Source: an uncultured Dehalococcoidia bacterium (GTDB lineage Bacteria; Chloroflexota; Dehalococcoidia; Lucifugimonadales; UBA3495). From it: a stretch of DNA of 64,000 bases. Position 1 is the stretch's first letter. Each line of letters starts with the position of its first letter. The notes under the pieces are model-generated. The model saw nothing but the letters and a program-made list of their open reading frames with translations, did not search any database and was not told the DNA's origin. Location: positions 25,104-89,103 of the forward strand of contig CAYFGT010000003.1 in NCBI GenBank assembly GCA_964343075.1, given 5' to 3'. This document shows positions 48,770 to 59,250 of this stretch, in pieces. Made by a program: the position numbers and the translations under genes.

Positions 48770-51343
48770 ATGACTAGATACAAGGATTTACTTGGTTCGA
48801 TTCTTGTCGACCGATGGAATACTCGAGTTATACTAACGGTAATTGCCCTTTTAACATTTGTCTTTGGAGTATGCTGGTGGCTTATGGAAGATGGAGATTT
48901 ATCTTCATGGGATCCACCTGGGCCTGACGTTGAACTTCAGTACCAAATAGACAATACTTTCCCCCAAAGAAATCACGTTGTAGCGTTTATATTAGAAAGT
49001 CGGACAGGTGATATTTTCGAACCATCTGTTCTTAGAAGTTTGTATGATAATGAACTTGCCTTAAGAAAAGCATATGGTGGATATTTAATTGATCAGTATG
49101 ATGTTGTGAATGATCGACAAATATTAGGTATTTTTACTATTGCAGACGCGGTGCAAAAAACACTCCGGGCTTCTGGTAGAGCGATAGATATATATAACGC
49201 AACCGAAAAAGATATAAACGATGCCATATCCGAAATTTTGTCGAATGATATCGGAGGTGAGTTAATAACCTCAATGGCTTCGGACCTGAGAGTTGTTGAA
49301 GAATTGTCTGGAGAATCCCGTTGGGTAGCGTCGGCTATGACGATATTTGTCAGCTTAGACAATGAGAAATTGGGGGGAGGCCGTTCTACATTCAGCCTTA
49401 CTTCAGATCCTAGAATCTTGCAGAAAGAATCTATTAATCGCGATATTCAGACTATCTTGAGAGGAAACCAAGATCACTACGACTTATGGGGCCTTGCTAT
49501 TGACACTAATCTGGAGGCAATGGACGAAGGACAAAAATCTATTCCGTACGTTTTTATTGCAATCATATTGGTGACTGCTGTAGCCGCTCTGTCATTGCGT
49601 TCATGGATTGCATTTTTTGTGATAGGGTTGGGATTGTTTACGCTACTTGTTTGGCTGGAAGGTATTTCACACATACTTGCTCTGAAGCAATCAGTCACAA
49701 CAGACTTGATTGTTCCCATTGCAATGGTGTCTTTAGGAGTAGATTTTTTCATTCACTCGGTGAGTAGATATCAAGAAAGTCGTGCGGAGGGCCTAGGTTC
49801 ACGAATAGCATTGGCTTCCGCGATTGTTGGTATATCTGGTGCATTAACACTCGCCATGCTGTCTGACGGAATAGCTTTTTTGGCTAATCTGACCTCTAAT
49901 ATCGATGCTATAGTCGGATTTGGTTTGTCCGCAGGGATAGCAGTGATTGCATCTTATTTGATTATGGGATGGGTAATGCCTGTAGTATTACTGGAAATAG
50001 AAGAAATTATGCCGGGACGAGAACTTAACAAACGTCCCATTAAACATATATACCGTGAATCTTTTTTATCTATTATCACCCGAATAGAAGACTTCAGTCT
50101 AAACTTTGCTATGCTTCTGTCTAAGAAACCATTCACCGTTGTTGTGGTATGCGGAGGTTTAACTAGCGCATGTTTCTTGGTTTCATTAAATATTCAACCT
50201 GAATTTGATATTAAGGATTTTTTTTCTTACGAGAGTGATTTGGTCCAAGGCCTCGATAAATTGGATTACCACATGGATGGTGAACTTTTAGGAGAGCCGA
50301 TATTCTTGCTGGTAAAAATTGACGCTAGATCTTCTGAATGGCTGGGTGAGTTAAAAGCATTAAATCAAAATCTGTCAAAATCGGAGTTTCTAACTAAAGA
50401 TCCCGACGGAGATTTATTCCTATACCTGCCTTCGCTGGATTCGATAATGGATAGGTTTGCAGAAACGAGGTACGCTATTCGTGATTTTGGTTACCGGACT
50501 GATGAACAACTCTCCGGTGCGAATATTTTGGAACAAGGAATCTTCTCATTAGGAAAGTCAAAAGAATTATTAATGTATTTATATGAAAACGGAGTTCAGA
50601 CACGAACCGAGGTATATTATTTTGAGCCGAGTCAAATCCAAGAGATGTTGCAGCAATCTGAAGTTAATAAAAATGAGTTTCTTGTTTTGATTAGTGTTGG
50701 TGCGTTAGGCACTAGGGAGCAAAGTCAAGTGCCAGAAATAAGAACTGACATTGAAGAAATTATTCAGCAATCCGACAATGAGTTAGGCTTGCAGGTGATA
50801 GGAGTAACTGGCTCACCGTTCATTCGTAACGCTACGTTGGCACATACGACTGGCTTAATGAAAATATCTGTTCCTGTTGCAATAATGGCTTGTTTTTTGA
50901 TGTTAGTGTTATGGATGCGTTCTATTCTGTTCGCTGTTGCTACAGTGATACCAGTAGGGTGTGCTGTGTTCTGGATATTGGCATTTATGGTTGTGGCCGG
51001 CCTTAATGTTAATTTTGTTACCGCGACTATTGCTTCGGTCACCATAGGGGTAGGGATTGATTTCTCTATTCATATCACGCAGAGATTTAGGCAAGAATTG
51101 AGAAAAGAGAAGCCATTAGATATGGCGTTGGAACATACTATCAGAGGAACAGGAAAAGCATTGTTTGGGTCCGCTTTGTCAAGCATGATCGGATTCAGTG
51201 TGTTATTGCTGGCCCCTATGCCAATTATTGCTACTTATGGACTTTTGACGTCCATTATGATCCTGATAGCGATGGCTGGGGCGTTATTGATGCTCCCTAG
51301 TATTCTGTTAATCATCAGTCTGAAAACGAATAGGTCGGAGTGA
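48770..51343 (+). CDS. RND-superfamily / MMPL-type exporter
   Basis: 857 aa with two hydrophobic 5-6-TM bundles, each preceded by a large soluble loop. The layout is typical of MMPL/HpnN-like RND proteins. Confidence 0.7.
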   Translation: MTRYKDLLGSILVDRWNTRVILTVIALLTFVFGVCWWLMEDGDLSSWDPPGPDVELQYQIDNTFPQRNHVVAFILESRTGDIFEPSVLRSLYDNELALRKAYGGYLIDQYDVVNDRQILGIFTIADAVQKTLRASGRAIDIYNATEKDINDAISEILSNDIGGELITSMASDLRVVEELSGESRWVASAMTIFVSLDNEKLGGGRSTFSLTSDPRILQKESINRDIQTILRGNQDHYDLWGLAIDTNLEAMDEGQKSIPYVFIAIILVTAVAALSLRSWIAFFVIGLGLFTLLVWLEGISHILALKQSVTTDLIVPIAMVSLGVDFFIHSVSRYQESRAEGLGSRIALASAIVGISGALTLAMLSDGIAFLANLTSNIDAIVGFGLSAGIAVIASYLIMGWVMPVVLLEIEEIMPGRELNKRPIKHIYRESFLSIITRIEDFSLNFAMLLSKKPFTVVVVCGGLTSACFLVSLNIQPEFDIKDFFSYESDLVQGLDKLDYHMDGELLGEPIFLLVKIDARSSEWLGELKALNQNLSKSEFLTKDPDGDLFLYLPSLDSIMDRFAETRYAIRDFGYRTDEQLSGANILEQGIFSLGKSKELLMYLYENGVQTRTEVYYFEPSQIQEMLQQSEVNKNEFLVLISVGALGTREQSQVPEIRTDIEEIIQQSDNELGLQVIGVTGSPFIRNATLAHTTGLMKISVPVAIMACFLMLVLWMRSILFAVATVIPVGCAVFWILAFMVVAGLNVNFVTATIASVTIGVGIDFSIHITQRFRQELRKEKPLDMALEHTIRGTGKALFGSALSSMIGFSVLLLAPMPIIATYGLLTSIMILIAMAGALLMLPSILLIISLKTNRSE

Positions 51344-51377
51344 TATAATGCAATGAACCTTCAGGAGGATGGTCATA

Positions 51378-52547
51378 ATGATTAAAAGATTTTCTGTATT
51401 TTACGTAGGGCAAATAGATTTGGATAATGTTGGTCATGGGGGTACCGCTCCTGATGACCGGAGATATTCTAACGAAGAACTAGTCACAGCTTATTCGAAT
51501 GCAGAGGAATTGGCCAAACATCTGGACAAGCTAGGGTACTACGCAATGTGGGGAGCTGAGCATCATTTCCAGAGAGAAGGGTACGAATGCTTTCCTAATT
51601 TGATTTTGTTAGGAGTCCACCTCGCGGGAATAACCAAAACGCTGAAGTTCGGTAATTCGTTTAACATCGTTCCTATGTGGCATCCATTGAGGCTGGCAGA
51701 GGACTTTGCTATGGCAGACGTGATGACCAAGGGAAGAATGATATTTGGAGTTGGTAGAGGGTATCAAAGCAGAGAAGTAGAAACGTTTGGCGCACCTTTG
51801 TTGGATCGAGATAAAAATAGAGAGTTATTTGAAGAACAAATAGAAGTCATCCTTAAGGCGTTTAATGAAGATTCGTTTAGTCACAAAGGTAAACACTATA
51901 CTATACCCGCTGATGTTGAATTCAGGGGATATGACTTGGAAGATATTACAATGGTTCCCAGACCTATTAATCTTCCTGTTGAAATGTGGCAACCTGTCTC
52001 TAGTGGCAATTCGATCAAATTTGCTGCTCAAAAGGGGATCAAGATTGTTGTCGCGTTGACAGGAGAAGCGATAGTAGATCAATTTATGAGTGAATACAAA
52101 GCCGCGGCTACAGAACAAGGTAAAAACTTAGAATTAGGGCAAGACACCTGTTTGGGTTTTGGGTTTTGTATCGGAGATAGCCGAGAAGACGCGATTGAAA
52201 AAGTGCGGCCGTACCATGATGAAAGGTACAAATGGTTCGCGCCTTTTGGTTTTGTTAGGTACACCGATGAAAAAGGAAGAATGTGGGGAACTCCAGGAGC
52301 GCCTACCAGGATGCCTCGTGTTGAAGATGGTGTAGACCAGAAAGCTTGGTTGTGTGGGACATCTGATCAAATTGTGGAGACTCTGAAATATTTCGAAAGT
52401 AAGTACCCAGGACTGGAAGATATTGTTCTCCAATGGCCAGAAGGTATGCCTTGGCCAGAGTTTCAGGAACAGTTGACCATATTTGCCAAAGAGGTTATGC
52501 CTAATTTCCAGGCTGCCACTGCGGATGTTGTAGTGGCTGACGATTAA
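51378..52547 (+). CDS. Luciferase-like (LLM-class) flavin-dependent oxidoreductase
   Basis: ...GYYAMWGAEHHF...RLAEDFAMADVMTKGRMIFGVGRGY... ATG 51378 lies 9 nt after an AGGAGG RBS (the track start 51369 abuts the RBS). Confidence 0.85.
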   Translation: MIKRFSVFYVGQIDLDNVGHGGTAPDDRRYSNEELVTAYSNAEELAKHLDKLGYYAMWGAEHHFQREGYECFPNLILLGVHLAGITKTLKFGNSFNIVPMWHPLRLAEDFAMADVMTKGRMIFGVGRGYQSREVETFGAPLLDRDKNRELFEEQIEVILKAFNEDSFSHKGKHYTIPADVEFRGYDLEDITMVPRPINLPVEMWQPVSSGNSIKFAAQKGIKIVVALTGEAIVDQFMSEYKAAATEQGKNLELGQDTCLGFGFCIGDSREDAIEKVRPYHDERYKWFAPFGFVRYTDEKGRMWGTPGAPTRMPRVEDGVDQKAWLCGTSDQIVETLKYFESKYPGLEDIVLQWPEGMPWPEFQEQLTIFAKEVMPNFQAATADVVVADD

Positions 52548-52950: not shown

Positions 52951-53397
52951 TTGAACATAAGTGATTACATTTTAATATTGATTCAATGGACTCACCATCT
53001 CGGAGCAGTGTGTTGGGTAGGGGGATGCGTTTTTTACTACCTCGTGCTGAAACCTGTATATCAAGAAACACAGACTGTTTCCTTGGACAGGCAGCGAATT
53101 GCCTATCAATTTAGGTATGTAGTTAAAGGGGCCATATGGGTATTAATTTCTACAGGAATTGTTCTAGGTATTTCTGAACTAGTAACTCAAAGTGTGAGTA
53201 ACACTTACATAGTGGTATTGGGAGTTAAAGTCGGTTTTGCCGCCTCTATGTTCTTATTGTATGTTTTTAATAAAGAATCTCAGGCAGCTGTTGTTAGGGT
53301 GCTTAACATTCCGGTTTATCGGACAGACTTGATTCTGATATTAGGTATATTGGTGATTGGGCTTTCAGATATATTGAGCGCTCTGGGAGCTCTCTAA
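52951..53397 (+). CDS. Small integral membrane protein (about four TM helices)
   Basis: 148 aa, TTG start with AGGA 5 nt upstream. The hydrophobic helices include WTHHLGAVCWVGG (loosely CopD-like). Function unknown. Confidence 0.5.
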   Translation: MNISDYILILIQWTHHLGAVCWVGGCVFYYLVLKPVYQETQTVSLDRQRIAYQFRYVVKGAIWVLISTGIVLGISELVTQSVSNTYIVVLGVKVGFAASMFLLYVFNKESQAAVVRVLNIPVYRTDLILILGILVIGLSDILSALGAL

Positions 53398-53413: not shown

Positions 53414-53593
53414 GTGAATAAAGGAATAATGGACCTGCTTGCATGCCCTATTTGTAACGGGGCATTGGTGATAGAAGAGGAAGTTTTGGTTGACGATAAG
53501 GTAACGTCTGGGAGTCTTGTATGTATAGAGTGTAAAGAAAGGTATCCCATCGAAGACGGGATACCTAACCTTCTGCCTCCTAATTTGCGGTAG
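53414..53593 (+). CDS. Trm112/UPF0434-family small zinc-ribbon protein (absent from the ORF track because it is 59 aa)
   Basis: GTG 53414 lies 6 nt after an AAGGAGGG RBS. Translation VNKGIMDLLACPICNGALVIEEE...GSLVCIECKERYPIEDGIPNLLPPNLR has the CPxC...CxxC...YPIxDGIPxLL signature. Confidence 0.75.
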   Translation: MNKGIMDLLACPICNGALVIEEEVLVDDKVTSGSLVCIECKERYPIEDGIPNLLPPNLR

Positions 53594-53594
53594 C

Positions 53595-54137
53595 CTATCC
53601 TACCGTTAACGTTCGGATGATTATCGGTGCGAGTTCTTCAGCTCGCTCCCTTAGGGTAACACGGTCCAGATTACCTATGGGATGCTTAGTAAATATTGTT
53701 GGATAGTTTTCTGCTCCCCATAATTTGGCCATAGCCCCTGCAGTTTCAATAAATCTATCTGTGCAAATTGTAGCTGAGGGGATGCCTTGCTTCTCAGAAT
53801 GTATTCCGTCGTGCACACTGCACGCGCTGCATGAGCCTCAATCGCCGATGGCTATGATGATCGCGTCGGAATTATTTGCTAAGGATTCTAGCTCTTTTGG
53901 ATCTGCTGGTTTTGAGGCGCTTGGTTTTTTGAGCCATGAAATACTCTTAACTTCATATTTTTCAGTTAGCACATTTGCAATTTCTTCTAGCAACACATCT
54001 GCATTGCGTTTACTATCGTCTATGAGTCCGATTGCTGCACCTGCTACAGTTTCTATTCTCGGAGCTCCTTGGAACTCAGGTACGATGGCCTCGGTGCTAG
54101 GATCTACTAAAGTGTAGGTTTGTTTAATGTTTACCAT
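53595..54137 (-). CDS. Mini-GrdB-like selenoprotein (UGSC / UxxCxxC motif); in-frame UGA at 53838-53840 read as selenocysteine
   Basis: Track ORFs 53838-54137 and 53595-53816 share one frame and are separated only by TGA. Read-through gives ...NSDAIIIAIGD-U-GSCSACSVHDGIHSEKQGIPSATICT...FTKHPIGNL... (180 aa). An AGGAG RBS precedes ATG 54137, and a SECIS-like hairpin lies downstream of the UGA. Confidence 0.75.
53807..53826 (-). promoter_or_regulatory. Candidate bacterial SECIS stem-loop
   Basis: mRNA CGCGUGCA-GUG-UGCACGACG forms 8 bp with one bulged A and a G/U-containing apical loop. The stem starts 11 nt after the UGA. Confidence 0.45.
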
Positions 54138-54147
54138 AGTTCTCCTC

Positions 54148-55218
54148 TTAAATATTAAATGATTTGGTAGTGGACGTTGAAGATACCTTGGGTCCCCAGC
54201 TGGGGATAACTGACGACATGTCTGCCTCTTCTCCGCCAGCGAATACGACCATTATATCTTCAGGGTGTTCGATTAAATTTATATAATCTGTGTGATCTGG
54301 AGGATTTACTTCACCCGGGAGTACTAATGCCGTTTTAAGTTCTGCTCTAGACTTTTTGATATTTTGGTGTAAATAAGCTTGAATGTCTGCCTTTGTCCAA
54401 TCTTTCCACAAGGAGCTATGGCCAGCGATTGTGACCACGATTTCTCCTTGCCTGATGCCAGTTTCAGATTTCCCTACAGATCCTGAGGTAGACAAAGAAG
54501 TACCTAACGAAGACGCAACATCCGCTATACAGTACAAGATCGCTTCTGGTTTGCCGACAGACCTAATTTGCCTTGGGGCTTCACCAGCAAAAGCGGTAAC
54601 GGTATTGGAATCTGATGAGAACCCTTTTTGCACACTGAGAGGTTCCCAATGGGTTTCAGTTTGGGCTTCTGCTATACAATAAGAATATTTGCCAGGGTGG
54701 CCAATCACTGATCGATCGAATAGTCCAGGAATCGCAGCACAAGCGTTCATCAAGATTAGGCGTACACTTCTGCCTATAGTTGCATTAGCACGATTCCCCG
54801 GGCCGAAAAGATTATTCCTGGCGTTTATTCCTAATTGAGAAACGACAGGACCATTGAATATCAATAGAATACCTGCTCCTCCTAGGCTAGATGACGGTCC
54901 TATGAGGTTGAATTTAGGGTCCAATATCGCTTCGGTCGCAGCCAGAACGGCTGGGAAATATTCTGGTAGACATCCAGCCATAACAGCGTTCGATGCTACC
55001 TTATCTAGGGTGATAGAGCGCCGACGTTCCGGGATCTCTCCTACAATATGTGACGCAGGGAGATTAACTACTCGTAGAAACTCATCAACCCTTGCATCTG
55101 TTGGCGGGACGACGGGAAGCCCGTCCGTCCAGCCTAGCTCATAGATGCGCTCTATTGCACTCAGAGGGTCATCGAACTCCACTTGTACCGTCTTGGTTTC
55201 TGCTTGATTCGAATCCAT
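54148..55218 (-). CDS. Conserved-looking protein of unknown function (356 aa), translationally coupled to the genes on both sides
   Basis: A long ORF whose ATG overlaps the upstream TAA (TAATG). Its stop lies inside the RBS of the selenoprotein gene. I cannot assign the motifs GWTDGLPVVPPT and NLFGPGNRANATIGR to a family. Confidence 0.6.
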   Translation of the reverse strand: MDSNQAETKTVQVEFDDPLSAIERIYELGWTDGLPVVPPTDARVDEFLRVVNLPASHIVGEIPERRRSITLDKVASNAVMAGCLPEYFPAVLAATEAILDPKFNLIGPSSSLGGAGILLIFNGPVVSQLGINARNNLFGPGNRANATIGRSVRLILMNACAAIPGLFDRSVIGHPGKYSYCIAEAQTETHWEPLSVQKGFSSDSNTVTAFAGEAPRQIRSVGKPEAILYCIADVASSLGTSLSTSGSVGKSETGIRQGEIVVTIAGHSSLWKDWTKADIQAYLHQNIKKSRAELKTALVLPGEVNPPDHTDYINLIEHPEDIMVVFAGGEEADMSSVIPSWGPKVSSTSTTKSFNI

Positions 55219-56165
55219 TATTTGACCCTAGCGTATTTGGACAGGCTTCTCATTTCACGAGGTTCATCGAGGTGTGAGCCTCTTATAGTGTACGAGACTT
55301 CTGCAACATAGATCGCTCCAGTTGAATCTACGGCTATACCGTGAGGTGCAATGAATTGTCCAGGGCCTTCTCCTTCTTCTTTGTCACCAAATACACATAC
55401 TCTATTCCCGTCTAGGTCATATATGGAAACACGGTGACCCAATCCTGGTGCGTCATCGACACCCCCCATTCCGTTTAGTTCACCTATATAAATATGGTCT
55501 CCCCATAACACCATACAGTCTGGTCTATGAATATTATTCCACATTGTTATGAAGTTGCCATCCACATCGAAAATTTGGATTCGGTGGCATTCTCTGTCTA
55601 CTACATAGACACGTTCGTTGTCATCAATTGCAATGTTGTGAGGTCGGATGAATTGACCTGCGTCTATTCCGGGTTCTCCCCATGAAAATTTGTATTGTCC
55701 GTCAGCGGTGTATACATGGATTCGGGAATTACCATAACCGTCCGATATGTAGATATCCCCGTTGCTTGGCCGTATCGCTGCAGATGTCGGCCGGTTAAAT
55801 GGCTGACCACTCCAGCGAGGCGCTGGATGATTCCGTTCTCCTATTTCCATTAATTTTTCACCAGATGTGGAGAATTTTTGGATAGTATGGATCCCGTCGT
55901 CTGCTGCTAATAGAGAGTCGTCGTGGGCGATGTATAAACCGTGAGTCCTGTTTTCACTGAATTGGCCGTCCCCGATGGATCTTAGGTAATTCCCATCTTG
56001 GTCAAACACCATGATAGGCTCTGGGCCTCTGGTTAGCACAAAAACCTGATCGTTTGAATCGCAGACTACCCCAGGGCATTCCAATAATCTTTTGCCTTCT
56101 GGTAGTTTCACCCAGTCTTCAACGAATGTGTACTTAAAGTCTCCTTGTCCATATATTTCACTCAT
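55218..56165 (-). CDS. NHL-repeat six-bladed beta-propeller protein (peptidyl-alpha-hydroxyglycine alpha-amidating lyase-like)
   Basis: Repeated ...D..G.IYV.D..N.RI..F...G blades (for example IYISDGYGNSRIHVY, VYVVDRECHRIQIFD, IYVAEVS); 315 aa. Confidence 0.8.
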   Translation of the reverse strand: MSEIYGQGDFKYTFVEDWVKLPEGKRLLECPGVVCDSNDQVFVLTRGPEPIMVFDQDGNYLRSIGDGQFSENRTHGLYIAHDDSLLAADDGIHTIQKFSTSGEKLMEIGERNHPAPRWSGQPFNRPTSAAIRPSNGDIYISDGYGNSRIHVYTADGQYKFSWGEPGIDAGQFIRPHNIAIDDNERVYVVDRECHRIQIFDVDGNFITMWNNIHRPDCMVLWGDHIYIGELNGMGGVDDAPGLGHRVSIYDLDGNRVCVFGDKEEGEGPGQFIAPHGIAVDSTGAIYVAEVSYTIRGSHLDEPREMRSLSKYARVK

Positions 56166-56193
56166 AATTCTCCTCCATTTTTGGTTTTTTGGG

Positions 56194-57792
56194 TTAATAG
56201 TTTAATAAAGAGCTTCCTTCTCCTTTAATGTACTCTGCAGTCCGTAAAGCGATTGCATGGATAGTAGGAGTTGGGTTTATACAAGCGCTTGTTGTAAAAA
56301 CACTCCCATCGACGATGAATAAATTTGGTACGTCATGAGTCCTACACCATCTGTCGACTACTGAAGTATCAGGGTCATTGCCCATTTTAGCAGTTCCTAA
56401 GAGATGCCATCCAGTATTTCTCCTTTGAGGTGAGGCCAAGATATCATGAGCACCTGCGGATTTCATTATGTCCTTTGCCCTGTCTACCCCGTGGGCTAAC
56501 ATGTTTTTTGTATTTTCACTAATTGTGTAGTCTATTTTGGGGGCTGGAATTCCATCTGAGTCGGTTAATACAGGGTCTAATGTAACTTGATTGTGTTCCT
56601 CAGGTAGATCTTCTGTCATGATCGTGATAGTAGCACTGTGTTGGAATCTCTCGGCAAATTGAGCGTGGTGTCGATGCCCCCATGCTACAGGCAATCCCAC
56701 TAGGCCTCCTAGTGCTACTCCTAATGGTGTCGTTGACTGGCTAGTAATTTGTAAATCATATCCCCTCACAAAGCCCCTAGAGATATCAGTTTCGTAGAAC
56801 TCTTGACATAACATGGCACTCCCTCTGGGGCCTACCGGATTACCGAAGTCTTCCTCAAAGATGCCAATAACTCCTCCACAAGGGTGATGCATCAGATTTT
56901 TCCCTACGAGACCAGTGGAATTTGCCAATCCTGTTGGGAATTTTCCACTTTTAGAATTCAAGAGGAGCCTTGCTGTGCCTACTCCGTTGCAAGCCATGAT
57001 TACGATTTTGGCTGTGATTTGTTGGAGGTCTCCTCTGCGGTTATAAAACAAAGCCCCAGTGGCTACTCCGTCTCTGTTTGTTAAAATCTCTCTAACACGG
57101 GCATTAGTTTTTAAGATAGCACCTGCAGATATAGCCTTGGGCCAGTAAATTATATCGCTACTTGAAAAAGATCTTAGGAAGGCACCTCGATCTGGTTCTC
57201 TGCCGTCATAATAGACCGATGAGTTAGCGTTGTCGGAATGCCACCAGTGCCATCCAAGTTTATTGAGTCCTTTAGCTATAGCTTCCCCTGCTGGATTTAT
57301 AGGTAAAGGAGGTGTCGGGCGAGAGAGCTTAGGAGGGTACGCAGGGTCTCCGTTTAACCCTGACACACCATGCATTTGATCGTTAATGTCATAGTAGGGC
57401 TCTATCTCTTGATAGCTGATTGGCCAATCTTCGGCTACCCCATCTACTGATTGGACACGGAAGTCTGACGGGTGGAACCTTGGTATATGCGATCCGTAAT
57501 GAAGAGTACTTCCACCTACACCGTTGTACATTAGAGGAGCAATAGGTGAGTTTTTATCATTGACTGGATAATCTTCAGGCAATTGACGAATATTCGGGTC
57601 TGGATGGAAAGCAGTTTGCCAATATATAGCTGATTCAGCGTCTGTAGACGGGAAGGCGTCAAAAGGAAGCCAGTCTCCTTGTTCGAGGCAAGTAACTTGG
57701 ATTCCAGATTTTGCCAAAGACCACGTTACGGCAGCTCCAGAGGCTCCTCCACCGATCACTAATACTTCTGTGTCAAACTTCATATCAGGCAT
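56194..57792 (-). CDS. GMC-family FAD oxidoreductase
   Basis: TEVLVIGGGASGAAVTWSLAKSG FAD fold and C-terminal HLLGTAKMG...VVD...NLFIVDGSVF. Confidence 0.85.
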   Translation of the reverse strand: MPDMKFDTEVLVIGGGASGAAVTWSLAKSGIQVTCLEQGDWLPFDAFPSTDAESAIYWQTAFHPDPNIRQLPEDYPVNDKNSPIAPLMYNGVGGSTLHYGSHIPRFHPSDFRVQSVDGVAEDWPISYQEIEPYYDINDQMHGVSGLNGDPAYPPKLSRPTPPLPINPAGEAIAKGLNKLGWHWWHSDNANSSVYYDGREPDRGAFLRSFSSSDIIYWPKAISAGAILKTNARVREILTNRDGVATGALFYNRRGDLQQITAKIVIMACNGVGTARLLLNSKSGKFPTGLANSTGLVGKNLMHHPCGGVIGIFEEDFGNPVGPRGSAMLCQEFYETDISRGFVRGYDLQITSQSTTPLGVALGGLVGLPVAWGHRHHAQFAERFQHSATITIMTEDLPEEHNQVTLDPVLTDSDGIPAPKIDYTISENTKNMLAHGVDRAKDIMKSAGAHDILASPQRRNTGWHLLGTAKMGNDPDTSVVDRWCRTHDVPNLFIVDGSVFTTSACINPTPTIHAIALRTAEYIKGEGSSLLNY

Positions 57793-57807
57793 GGATGCAT
57801 CTCCGCA

Positions 57808-59010
57808 CTACAAGTTTGCGTTCTCGAATACTGCTGATACTCCTTGTCCTCCGCCAACACACATGGTTTCTAATCCGTATCGGTGCCCTTCTCTTTTCAT
57901 TTCATGGAGCAAGGTTGTTAAGATGCGGGCTCCTGTGGCCGCGATTGGATGTCCCAGAGAGATTCCTGATCCGTTCACGTTAAGGATGTCTTCAGTTGGT
58001 AATTTCCATTCCCTCAGTACGGCGAGAACCTGGGCTGCAAATGCTTCATTTAATTCGATAATATCCATATCTTTTAGTGTCAAACCTAATTTTGCCATTA
58101 CTTTATTTGTTGCTGGCACAGGGCCTATTCCCATAGTTGCTGGGTGGCACCCAGTTACTGCCCATCCTCTAAGGTAAGCCATGGGCTCAAGCCCTAGTTC
58201 TTCTAATTTATCCTCAGCTACCACGAGGCACATCGATGCAGCGTCGTTTTGGCTGCTCGCATTTCCTGCTGTTACTGTCCCGTCTTTGATGACAGGTCTT
58301 AATTTTCCGAGTACTTCCATGCTAGTTGATGATCTAGGACCTTCGTCTTTGTCAAAAATGATGGGGTCTCCTCTGCGTTGAGGAATTTCTACAGGAACAA
58401 TTTCTTCTTGAAATTTTCCAGACTCTGATGCGTGAACTGCTCTCTGGTGGCTTCTCAGTGCGTATTCATCCTGTTCTTCCCTAGCGATTTCGTATTGTTC
58501 CGCTAAGTTTTCCGCAGTCCCCACCATTCCAGCTATGTACCCAAATCGTTCTTCTGGGGCTATAGTTACTCTTGCTCTTTCTAACCTGTCATGGAATTCC
58601 ACTGTCCCGAAGCGCGCACCCCATCTGGATTCGTTGGTGTAAAATTCAGCATTGCTCATGCTTTCTACCCCTCCAGCGACTACAACGTCCGCGTTTTCCG
58701 TTTGTATAAGCATCGATGCATTCAGAATTGCTTGGAGTCCCGATGAACACCGTCTGTCTAATTGATAGCCAGGAACTTCTATAGGCAGATCTGCCTTGAG
58801 TCCGGTTAAACGGCCTATAGCGGGATTTTCACCACTCGGGTAACCATGGCCAAGGATGACGTCATCTATTCTTTCTACATCCAGATTAGTATTTGAAATA
58901 ATTTGTTTCAGCACTATGGCGCCTAAGTCGGCAGCTGAAACTGGTTTTAACGTCCCTCCGAAGCCCCCTACAGCGGTTCTCAAAGGTGAAACTATTGCTA
59001 CTCCTCGCAT
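57808..59010 (-). CDS. Acetyl-CoA C-acetyl/acyltransferase (thiolase)
   Basis: VAIVSPLRTAVGGFGG, active-site region RRCSSGLQA, NGSGISLGHPIAATG and CVGGGQG; 400 aa. GAGGAG RBS. Confidence 0.9.
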   Translation of the reverse strand: MRGVAIVSPLRTAVGGFGGTLKPVSAADLGAIVLKQIISNTNLDVERIDDVILGHGYPSGENPAIGRLTGLKADLPIEVPGYQLDRRCSSGLQAILNASMLIQTENADVVVAGGVESMSNAEFYTNESRWGARFGTVEFHDRLERARVTIAPEERFGYIAGMVGTAENLAEQYEIAREEQDEYALRSHQRAVHASESGKFQEEIVPVEIPQRRGDPIIFDKDEGPRSSTSMEVLGKLRPVIKDGTVTAGNASSQNDAASMCLVVAEDKLEELGLEPMAYLRGWAVTGCHPATMGIGPVPATNKVMAKLGLTLKDMDIIELNEAFAAQVLAVLREWKLPTEDILNVNGSGISLGHPIAATGARILTTLLHEMKREGHRYGLETMCVGGGQGVSAVFENANL

Positions 59011-59040
59011 TCTGAACTCCTCATCAATTGAATATGAGCA

Positions 59041-59069
59041 ATTTTACAAGTATTTTAAATGGTTGTCGA
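59041..59069 (-). promoter_or_regulatory. Candidate promoter of the thiolase-to-selenoprotein operon (TCGACA-17 nt-TAAAAT)
   Basis: On the minus strand, TCGACA lies at 59069-59064 and TAAAAT at 59046-59041, about 30 nt upstream of the thiolase ATG. Confidence 0.4.
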
Positions 59070-59135: not shown

Positions 59136-59208
59136 GGGGGTGTAGCTCAGCTGGGAGAGCGCCTGCTTTGCAAGCAGGAAGTCAGGGGTTCGAGTCCCCT
59201 CTCCTCCA
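59136..59208 (+). tRNA. tRNA-Ala (anticodon UGC)
   Basis: Cloverleaf read by eye: acceptor GGGGGTG/CTCCTCC with the G3:U70 alanine identity pair, D-arm GCTC-AGCTGGGA-GAGC, anticodon arm CCTGC-TTTGCAA-GCAGG, T-arm AGGGG-TTCGAGT-CCCCT. An encoded CC follows, and TATAAT lies at 59114-59119 upstream. Confidence 0.95.
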
Positions 59209-59250
59209 CCGACTTTCTTCTTGATAAGTTTGAATAAGTCTGGCGGTGTC

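Follow-up and report, generated by a model that had tools for sequence, protein, structure and literature searches.

Which enzyme, and which pathway, is encoded by a cluster of five genes that closes with a selenoprotein gene is the question raised by positions 53595-59069 of a 64-kb stretch of DNA (42.5% G+C; hereafter the window) from an uncultured Dehalococcoidia bacterium, whose nearest relatives are metagenome-assembled genomes of the SAR202/Dehalococcoidia. The cluster comprises genes for a thiolase, a GMC-family dehydrogenase, an NHL-repeat beta-propeller, a 356-amino acid (aa) protein, here termed P356, and the selenoprotein, and re-reading of the window recovered these five open reading frames (ORFs) at the predicted coordinates, all on the minus strand; cluster coordinates given below refer to this strand unless marked. 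The original prediction treated the five genes as a candidate for an undescribed selenocysteine (Sec)-dependent system, built around a 'mini-GrdB' selenoprotein and devoid of canonical Grd/Prd partners. Judged from its sequence, the selenoprotein belongs instead to the known UGSC family, to which it adds a new member from SAR202, while P356 accompanies UGSC obligately, either as a separate partner or as a fused domain. The P356-UGSC pair, with a probability that we place a little above even, represents a thioredoxin-fed, selenol/thiol-dependent reductase, which in SAR202 sits at the end of a catabolic cluster.

Three sets of loci were compared, namely 80 species-level SAR202/Dehalococcoidia genome loci (near set), 80 diverse metagenome loci retrieved by a profile built from remote relatives of P356 and sharing 35-64% P356 identity (distant set), and 23 further loci derived from targeted look-ups and the plasmids of cultured organisms. 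The frame of the selenoprotein gene (53595-54137, 180 aa) is broken only once, by a TGA at 53840-53838, after which a further 80 codons follow in frame. This TGA is retained in all 80 near-set genomes, within the motif GD-U-GSCSAC (Sec100), and tblastn alignments of residues 1-180 cross it in each of them, in support of the prediction that it encodes Sec. Among the diverse metagenome loci, TGA is found in 68 of the 69 full-length UGSC copies and Cys in the remaining one, while fusion proteins and the UGSC forms of haloarchaea and actinobacteria likewise have Cys in place of Sec. Codons +5 to +10 past the UGA (GCG UGC AGU GUG CAC GAC) are frozen at their synonymous sites in 70-71 of the 71 distinct sequences, while the flanking Gly and Ser codons, equally invariant as residues, vary freely at such sites. 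The frozen stretch folds into a hairpin (53808-53825; GCGUGCA-GUG-UGCACGAC) beginning 12 nt past the UGA, and the sole variant (L001) carries a compensatory double change from G-C to A-U. This hairpin is a candidate bacterial selenocysteine insertion sequence (SECIS) element. The call rests on comparative evidence, because the single-sequence fold of the region past the UGA is no more stable than those of shuffled sequences (unremarkable z-score), and the SECIS models gave no match in an Rfam scan of the window.

If the TGA were a true stop, the locus would contain two small unrelated ORFs, as it does in the public gene calls (99-aa protein), and nearly all database entries are indeed 99-100 aa products which end at the TGA. 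This alternative is extremely improbable and was rejected, as in-frame protein conservation extends 80 codons past the TGA in 80/80 loci, Cys substitutes at this position in homologs and fusions, the full-length product spans positions 2-171 of the 172 in the UGSC model and synonymous sites are conserved in the SECIS-like element. The truncation of UGSC at the Sec codon is common to essentially all public entries, and in two plasmid records from cultured bacteria the Sec-type UGSC gene is either unlisted or represented by its first 97 aa only (Paracoccus versutus, L181 4426-6008; Acidovorax sp. T1, L179 4971-6464). Since UGSC is truncated or missed by gene calls almost everywhere, selenium use in SAR202 and many other lineages is under-annotated.

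When Sec is read as Cys, the selenoprotein matches the Pfam family UGSC (PF24696) with 182 bits (cut-off 25; E-value 1.3e-53) and the NCBIfam model UGSC_fam (NF041046) with 150.2 bits (cut-off 125), and it contains the U/C-G-S-C motif with Sec, at codon 100, in the first position. With both curated cut-offs exceeded, the protein belongs to a family that was already catalogued, and the claim that the selenoprotein and its system are undescribed cannot be upheld. The 'UGSC-containing protein' of Zhang & Gladyshev was named in 2007 as a protein of unknown function (PMC1976440) and since 2007-2008 has counted among the most abundant selenoproteins known from aquatic environments (PMC1976440, PMC2398784), and a 2026 review still places it among the uncharacterised selenoproteins (PMC13188914). 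A literature search returned no paper connecting SAR202 and selenoproteins.

UGSC lies just downstream of P356 (54148-55218) in all 80 near-set genomes. In the distant set it adjoins P356 on the same strand in 71 of the 80 loci, five of the nine misses coinciding with a contig end, with P356 followed by UGSC in 60 cases, the reverse order in 13 and gaps that mostly range from -15 to +100 nt (median of a few tens of nt). The two are likewise adjacent or fused in 23/23 of the further loci. The proteins recovered include approximately 45 full-length UGSC::P356 fusions (524-581 aa), among them one that NCBI labels 'UGSC family (seleno)protein', and the AlphaFold2 model of the fusion forms a single confident body (predicted local distance difference test, pLDDT, 89.9; predicted template-modelling score, pTM, 0.91). 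The adjacency in genomes and metagenomes and the natural fusions bear out the prediction that P356 is the partner of the Sec module. A fusion of UGSC to a conserved domain, 'Unknown_1', had been reported in 2008 (PMC2398784), and P356 is likely this domain, an identity that is unverified, the published figure S1A being an image. The linkage of UGSC to its partner was thus hinted at as a fusion in 2008, and the system is not a categorically new one, while no description of the universality of the P356-UGSC pair, of the missing model and fold relative of the partner or of a recurrent thioredoxin reductase linkage was found in the literature searched.

Several variations on the pair were observed. 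A second, divergent P356 and UGSC pair occurs within 8 kb of the main pair in two SAR202 genomes (L033 7-1017 and L057 278-1468; minus strand), UGSC-P356-P356-UGSC tandem arrays are present in four loci (L105, L111, L116 and L132) and L090 (7001-8914) encodes a 637-aa protein in which the P356 domain occurs twice. In 11 of the 80 SAR202 genomes (e.g. L030 9058-9663), P356 and UGSC are separated by a DUF1326 gene, the product of which has a Cys-rich N-terminus (GACNCDWGCPCNF).

P356 itself matches no Pfam or NCBIfam model, and none of 58 diverse relatives matches a Pfam model at E<=1, despite a family that numbers at least 7988 homologs in a 90%-clustered database and 4605 clusters at 50% identity. 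Searches of the PDB with P356 and UGSC sequence profiles gave nothing meaningful. The model of the stand-alone protein has a pLDDT of 76 and a pTM of 0.81, and Foldseek searches against the PDB with P356 alone or within the fusion model returned no significant match; the insignificant matches are headed by class I fumarate hydratases and include cyclic amide hydrolases, with template-modelling (TM) scores of approximately 0.2. The residues D32-G-L-P35, P38-P39, G82-C83, P85, P89, G123-P124, R143-A-N145, G149-R150, C181, E184, W191 and G328-G329 are conserved family-wide. C83, which is located in a loop between two helices in the predicted structure, is invariant in 43 aligned fusions and conserved at 90% or above in 58 diverse stand-alone proteins, while C181 is conserved at 90% or above.

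Several features of the pair point to redox chemistry. The Sec/Cys position of UGSC does not vary among the aligned fusions (43/43) or the stand-alone proteins (20/20), while the second Cys can be lost in the Cys-type fusions, which have the motif GDCG[TS]xTS. In protein P0207, P356 is fused instead to a CxxC domain of the AhpC/TSA type, and in P0129 and P0230 it carries a further N-terminal, CxxC-containing extension without a Pfam match. Genes for thioredoxin reductase (trxB), and in one case thioredoxin (trxA), recur beside the pair in unrelated cultured bacteria, with the gene orders trxB-trxA-P356-UGSC in Arthrobacter sp. ERGS1:01, trxB-TctC-SDR-P356-UGSC (SDR, short-chain dehydrogenase/reductase) in Variovorax sp. 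SRS16 and P356-UGSC-trxB in Roseovarius sp. THAF8. A TrxB-like gene and TctC accompany a UGSC::P356 fusion in V. boronicumulans, and TrxB is encoded directly behind UGSC in the metagenome locus L168. Together, the invariant Sec/Cys, the alternative CxxC fusions and the presence of trxB and trxA in the operons suggest a thiol/selenol redox turnover that is fed by the thioredoxin system. Neighbouring genes are often linked to carboxylates, encoding TctC, TRAP and CitMHS transport proteins, MmgE/PrpD, aconitase, aconitase X, CoA-transferases, amidases and Amidohydro_2 proteins, and the frequency of such carboxylate transporters and enzymes, along with the conserved arginines in P356, suggests that the substrates bear carboxylates.

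The last two genes of the cluster may accordingly be pictured as a two-component enzyme, the counterparts of its components being fused into one polypeptide in many other bacteria. UGSC would be a small, flavodoxin-like alpha/beta domain that carries a reactive selenol in U-G-S-C and is probably a remote relative of the C-terminal region that bears Sec in selenoprotein B of the glycine, sarcosine, betaine and D-proline reductases. P356 would serve as the substrate-binding catalytic domain, contributing C83, C181 and conserved arginines suited to carboxylate binding. The substrate may be reduced at the P356-UGSC interface by the UGSC selenol and C83, leaving a selenenyl-sulfide or disulfide, and the oxidised pair would be recycled by electrons passing from NADPH to TrxB and thence to thioredoxin (Trx). 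In SAR202 the module would close a lineage-specific catabolic cluster, with the thiolase, a GMC dehydrogenase of the flavin adenine dinucleotide (FAD)-dependent sugar/polyol type and the NHL propeller, and presumably acts on one intermediate of the pathway.

Of the three genes upstream of the pair, the first (57808-59010, 400 aa) has both thiolase domains (Thiolase_N, PF00108, 7.6e-73; Thiolase_C, PF02803, 7.8e-44) and scores 637 bits against PRK06205 (cut-off 551), and its predicted product is an ordinary acetyl-CoA C-acyltransferase of the PRK06205 type. Nothing supports the suggested relation of this enzyme to GrdC/GrdD, and its candidacy as a GrdC/D analogue was rejected, the protein being a canonical thiolase not found in contexts outside SAR202. 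The second gene (56194-57792, 532 aa) codes for a putative FAD dehydrogenase in which both the GMC_oxred_N (PF00732) and GMC_oxred_C (PF05199) domains are above their cut-offs. The third (55218-56165, 315 aa) codes for an NHL-repeat protein, predicted to form a six-bladed beta-propeller, which has no evident signal peptide and scores 117.7 bits against the ScyF model, below the cut-off of 350.

Upstream of the pair and on the same strand, NHL genes are found in 79 of 80 SAR202 loci, GMC genes in 70 of 72 and thiolase genes in 56 of 69, the latter two denominators being the loci with enough upstream sequence to judge. The colinear order thiolase-GMC-NHL-P356-UGSC is retained in most SAR202 loci despite lineage-variable insertions in the spacers, which comprise SDR, glyoxalase-like, DUF1326 and toxin-antitoxin or Uma2-type genes, and the window holds one of the most compact versions of the arrangement. 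Subsets of the SAR202 genomes carry, between GMC, NHL and P356, inserts that by eye resemble toxin-antitoxin or mobile elements (e.g. L029 7013-8005, L028 5667-6023 and L072 33-815), and the core five-gene order is undisturbed in them. Outside the SAR202 clade, thiolase, GMC and NHL do not travel with the pair, which has other neighbours instead, and a search of the distant set for a recurrent third partner found no family in more than ~5 of 80 loci; an NHL homolog does adjoin the pair again in the distant locus L154 (P356 identity of 35%). The view of the five genes as a single Sec system therefore holds as colinearity within the SAR202/Dehalococcoidia and fails as a universal rule, only the P356-UGSC pair being kept elsewhere. 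A shared, SAR202-specific catabolic pathway for the five genes is plausible.

The layout of the cluster in the window agrees with the prediction at each junction, with thiolase and GMC 15 nt apart, GMC and NHL 28 nt apart, NHL and P356 overlapping by 1 nt in TAATG, and P356 and the selenoprotein gene separated by 10 nt, the TAA stop codon of P356 falling inside AAGAGGAG. The predicted promoter upstream of the thiolase gene (59041-59069; TCGACA-17-TAAAAT) fares less well. It is the best sigma-70-type match of the region (10/12 positions), but such matches (8) are no more numerous than expected from shuffled sequences (10.7), and the site is therefore retained only as a candidate. A terminator-like hairpin with a 12-bp stem and T-rich tail (53540-53566) is located 29 nt past the selenoprotein stop codon.

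A number of observations weigh against a thioredoxin-fed reductase that serves a common pathway. The trxB and trx genes were searched for and found neither in the window nor in the 80 SAR202 loci, and the trxB adjacency seen elsewhere is recurrent and far from universal. The Sec/Cys position is occupied by Met in fusions of Vibrio europaeus (L180 4980-6665) and Sporomusa termitida (L176 5938-7662), and P0189 has no Cys at this position, from which it follows that the domain pair can exist without the redox residue. C181 of P356 is substituted in several members, and since no third family is found repeatedly beside the pair over the range of its diversity, the genomic context gives no substrate. 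As to the cluster, the distance between GMC and NHL in SAR202 has a median of 752 nt and a maximum of 3.3 kb, which weakens the single-operon claim, and vertical inheritance could account for part of the colinearity seen within a single lineage. The Met-type fusions (GDMGTS/ADMGTS) adjoin genes for aconitase X and DUF126, and are possibly a non-redox offshoot of the family.

The label 'mini-GrdB' captures a remote resemblance around the Sec residue, but the protein is not a member of the GrdB/PrdB families. Against TIGR01917 (GrdB) it reaches 21.4 bits (cut-off 602) with residues 84-157 aligned only, there is no match to Pfam GRDB at E<=0.01 and no full-length match above the cut-offs of TIGR01917, TIGR01918 or TIGR04483 was obtained. 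Besides UGSC_fam, the NCBIfam models matched by 20 diverse UGSC proteins were GrdB (7/20), 'various selenoprotein B' (4), GrdF (3) and PrdB (2), with a best E-value of 2e-5. The predicted UGSC domain has a flavodoxin/Rossmann-like alpha/beta fold with generic Foldseek matches. It could nonetheless be proposed that P356 is a substrate activator like GrdE/PrdA, possibly with a self-generated carbonyl or pyruvoyl group, and that the UGSC selenol attacks the alpha-carbon of an amino or imino acid to break a C-N (or C-X) bond, after which the UxxC cysteine would resolve the selenoether. The similarity around Sec, weak as it is, is exclusive to GrdB/GrdF/PrdB, and the window protein has a UxxCxxC motif (U100-C103-C106). 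The invariant C83 of P356 lies in an inter-helix loop, imino- and amino-acid contexts occur (ornithine cyclodeaminase family, aconitase X, D-amino-acid/sarcosine-oxidase-like subunits and amidases), and the thioredoxin system adjoins the pair in some bacteria, as it does in grd operons, which also encode it. However, 0/58 diverse P356 proteins match Gly_reductase (GrdE/PrdA) or any other Pfam model at E<=1, P356 has no PDB relative, the third Cys varies across the UGSC family and Cys-type fusions lose even the second (GDCGTSTS). The hosts are mostly aerobes, with haloarchaea among them, and no Grd/Prd partner is encoded by the five window genes, as predicted, or by the called neighbours; in the Pfam and product listings, genes like GrdE/PrdA, GrdA, GrdC/D and PrdC appear in none of the contexts examined. 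Grd/Prd-type catalysis of this kind is regarded as unlikely. Only slightly less doubtful is the broader proposition that the pair is a widespread, O2-compatible and thioredoxin-driven selenoenzyme class with a previously unseen catalytic fold, which aerobic microbes of marine and soil habitats would use for Grd/Prd-like reductive bond cleavage of carboxylates or imino acids; were this true, the class would account for one step of refractory organic matter breakdown in SAR202.

The pair may also have no redox role, P356 being a hydratase, isomerase or lyase of carboxylic acids, with the Sec/Cys of UGSC acting as a nucleophile or acid-base residue or UGSC being structural or regulatory. Neighbouring genes for MmgE/PrpD, aconitase, aconitase X with DUF126, enolase, isocitrate lyase/phosphoenolpyruvate mutase family proteins, TctC, CitMHS and TRAP are in keeping with such a role, as are the fusions with Met for Sec/Cys and the class I fumarate hydratases at the top of the weak Foldseek matches of P356 alone. 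Those matches are not significant (TM ~0.2), however, and the invariance of Sec/Cys across the aligned fusions and stand-alone proteins, together with the retention of Sec in 68/69 environmental copies, speaks against this role. Without redox turnover it would also be difficult to account for the dedicated trxB/trxA genes and the alternative fusions to CxxC domains, and a non-redox function appears quite improbable. A different objection concerns the cluster rather than the chemistry, in that the five genes may not form one pathway, with P356-UGSC a self-contained module (e.g. for detoxification or repair) merely inherited beside thiolase-GMC-NHL. The lack outside SAR202 of any neighbour family in more than the ~5/80 loci noted above, the GMC/NHL/P356 spacers that reach 2-3 kb in SAR202 with unrelated insertions and the weak promoter evidence all favour separate modules. 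Against these stand the five-gene order and strand kept in most of the 80 species-level genomes despite the insertions, the tight junctions of the window (15, 28, -1 and 10 nt) and the NHL homolog beside the pair in L154. Independent modules are judged somewhat unlikely while retaining appreciable weight, and the thioredoxin-fed reductase at the end of a SAR202 catabolic cluster is the preferred interpretation.

The surroundings of the cluster show further recurrent features. On the opposite strand beyond UGSC, a membrane protein of 148-160 aa without a Pfam match is encoded in the window (52951-53397, plus strand) and in 55 of the 80 SAR202 loci (e.g. L005 9977-10459 and L076 11444-11992). 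Beyond it, a secreted CxxC redoxin of the TlpA/AhpC-TSA type is present in 51 loci and a gamma-glutamyltranspeptidase-like gene in 39; the redoxin is absent from the window. In the window, a 59-aa ORF for a Trm112p-like zinc ribbon (53414-53593, plus strand) converges on the selenoprotein gene, ending 1 nt from its stop codon, and the minus-strand terminator-like hairpin sits within this ORF. The cluster is further flanked by genes for an MMPL/RND-type transporter (857 aa) and a luciferase-like monooxygenase (392 aa) at 48770-52547 (plus strand), the latter family being found again downstream in 19 related loci. At the other end, a tRNA-Ala gene (anticodon TGC; 59136-59210, plus strand) is divergently oriented immediately upstream of the candidate promoter, and is the sole tRNA or Rfam match in the window.

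The analysis defines a functional unit, in which UGSC is joined by one specific partner domain with thousands of members and sometimes by thioredoxin reductase and thioredoxin. A long-standing unknown is thereby narrowed to a testable two-protein enzyme with cultured representatives, Cys forms being found in Arthrobacter, Roseovarius, Variovorax and haloarchaea and a Sec form in Paracoccus versutus.

Comparison with known systems places the window protein within the UGSC family without essential difference, given its full-length match, D-U-G-S-C motif, Sec position and the aquatic, largely aerobic hosts of the family; it represents the SAR202 ortholog, encoded by a separate gene behind that of its partner. 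Among the upstream proteins, GMC has as its nearest solved relative the alpha subunit of FAD-glucose dehydrogenase (6a2u, 9e-59), which is similar over the full length with GMC N- and C-terminal domains, and it also shows full-length similarity to the large subunit of fructose dehydrogenase (7w2j, ~1e-51). Unlike these enzymes, it has no adjacent gene for a small subunit or cytochrome c subunit in the window. The nearest enzymatic structure to the NHL protein is peptidyl-alpha-hydroxyglycine amidating lyase (PAL; 3fvz, 8.5e-17), with a partial match (residues 50-204). For the pair as a whole, the closest functional analogy is with thioredoxin-dependent reductases that have fused or dedicated redoxin modules, such as the fusions of methionine sulfoxide reductase (Msr) with Trx and the peroxiredoxin/AhpF-type relays. 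Like these, the pair combines a putative catalytic domain that has a presumably essential Cys with interchangeable U/CxxC redox domains (UGSC or AhpC/TSA-like) and trxB/trxA genes alongside, but no sequence or fold relationship between them was detected. Selenoprotein B (GrdB/GrdF and PrdB; TIGR01917, TIGR01918, NF040794 and TIGR04483) resembles UGSC in sequence, residues 84-157 of the latter corresponding to GrdB positions 331-398, as well as in the UxxC(xxC) motif, the separate and larger partner subunit and the thioredoxin-system genes that share its operon, as they do in some UGSC relatives. The UGSC protein is, however, 180 aa long as opposed to ~240-430 aa and attains ~21 bits where the cut-offs are ~600, P356, its partner, has no sequence relationship with any Grd/Prd component and there is no pyruvoyl proprotein of the GrdE/PrdA type. 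While selenoprotein B is hosted by Stickland fermenters, the UGSC hosts are mainly aerobes and haloarchaea, and the UGSC selenoprotein would work, at most, like a pared-down selenoprotein B.

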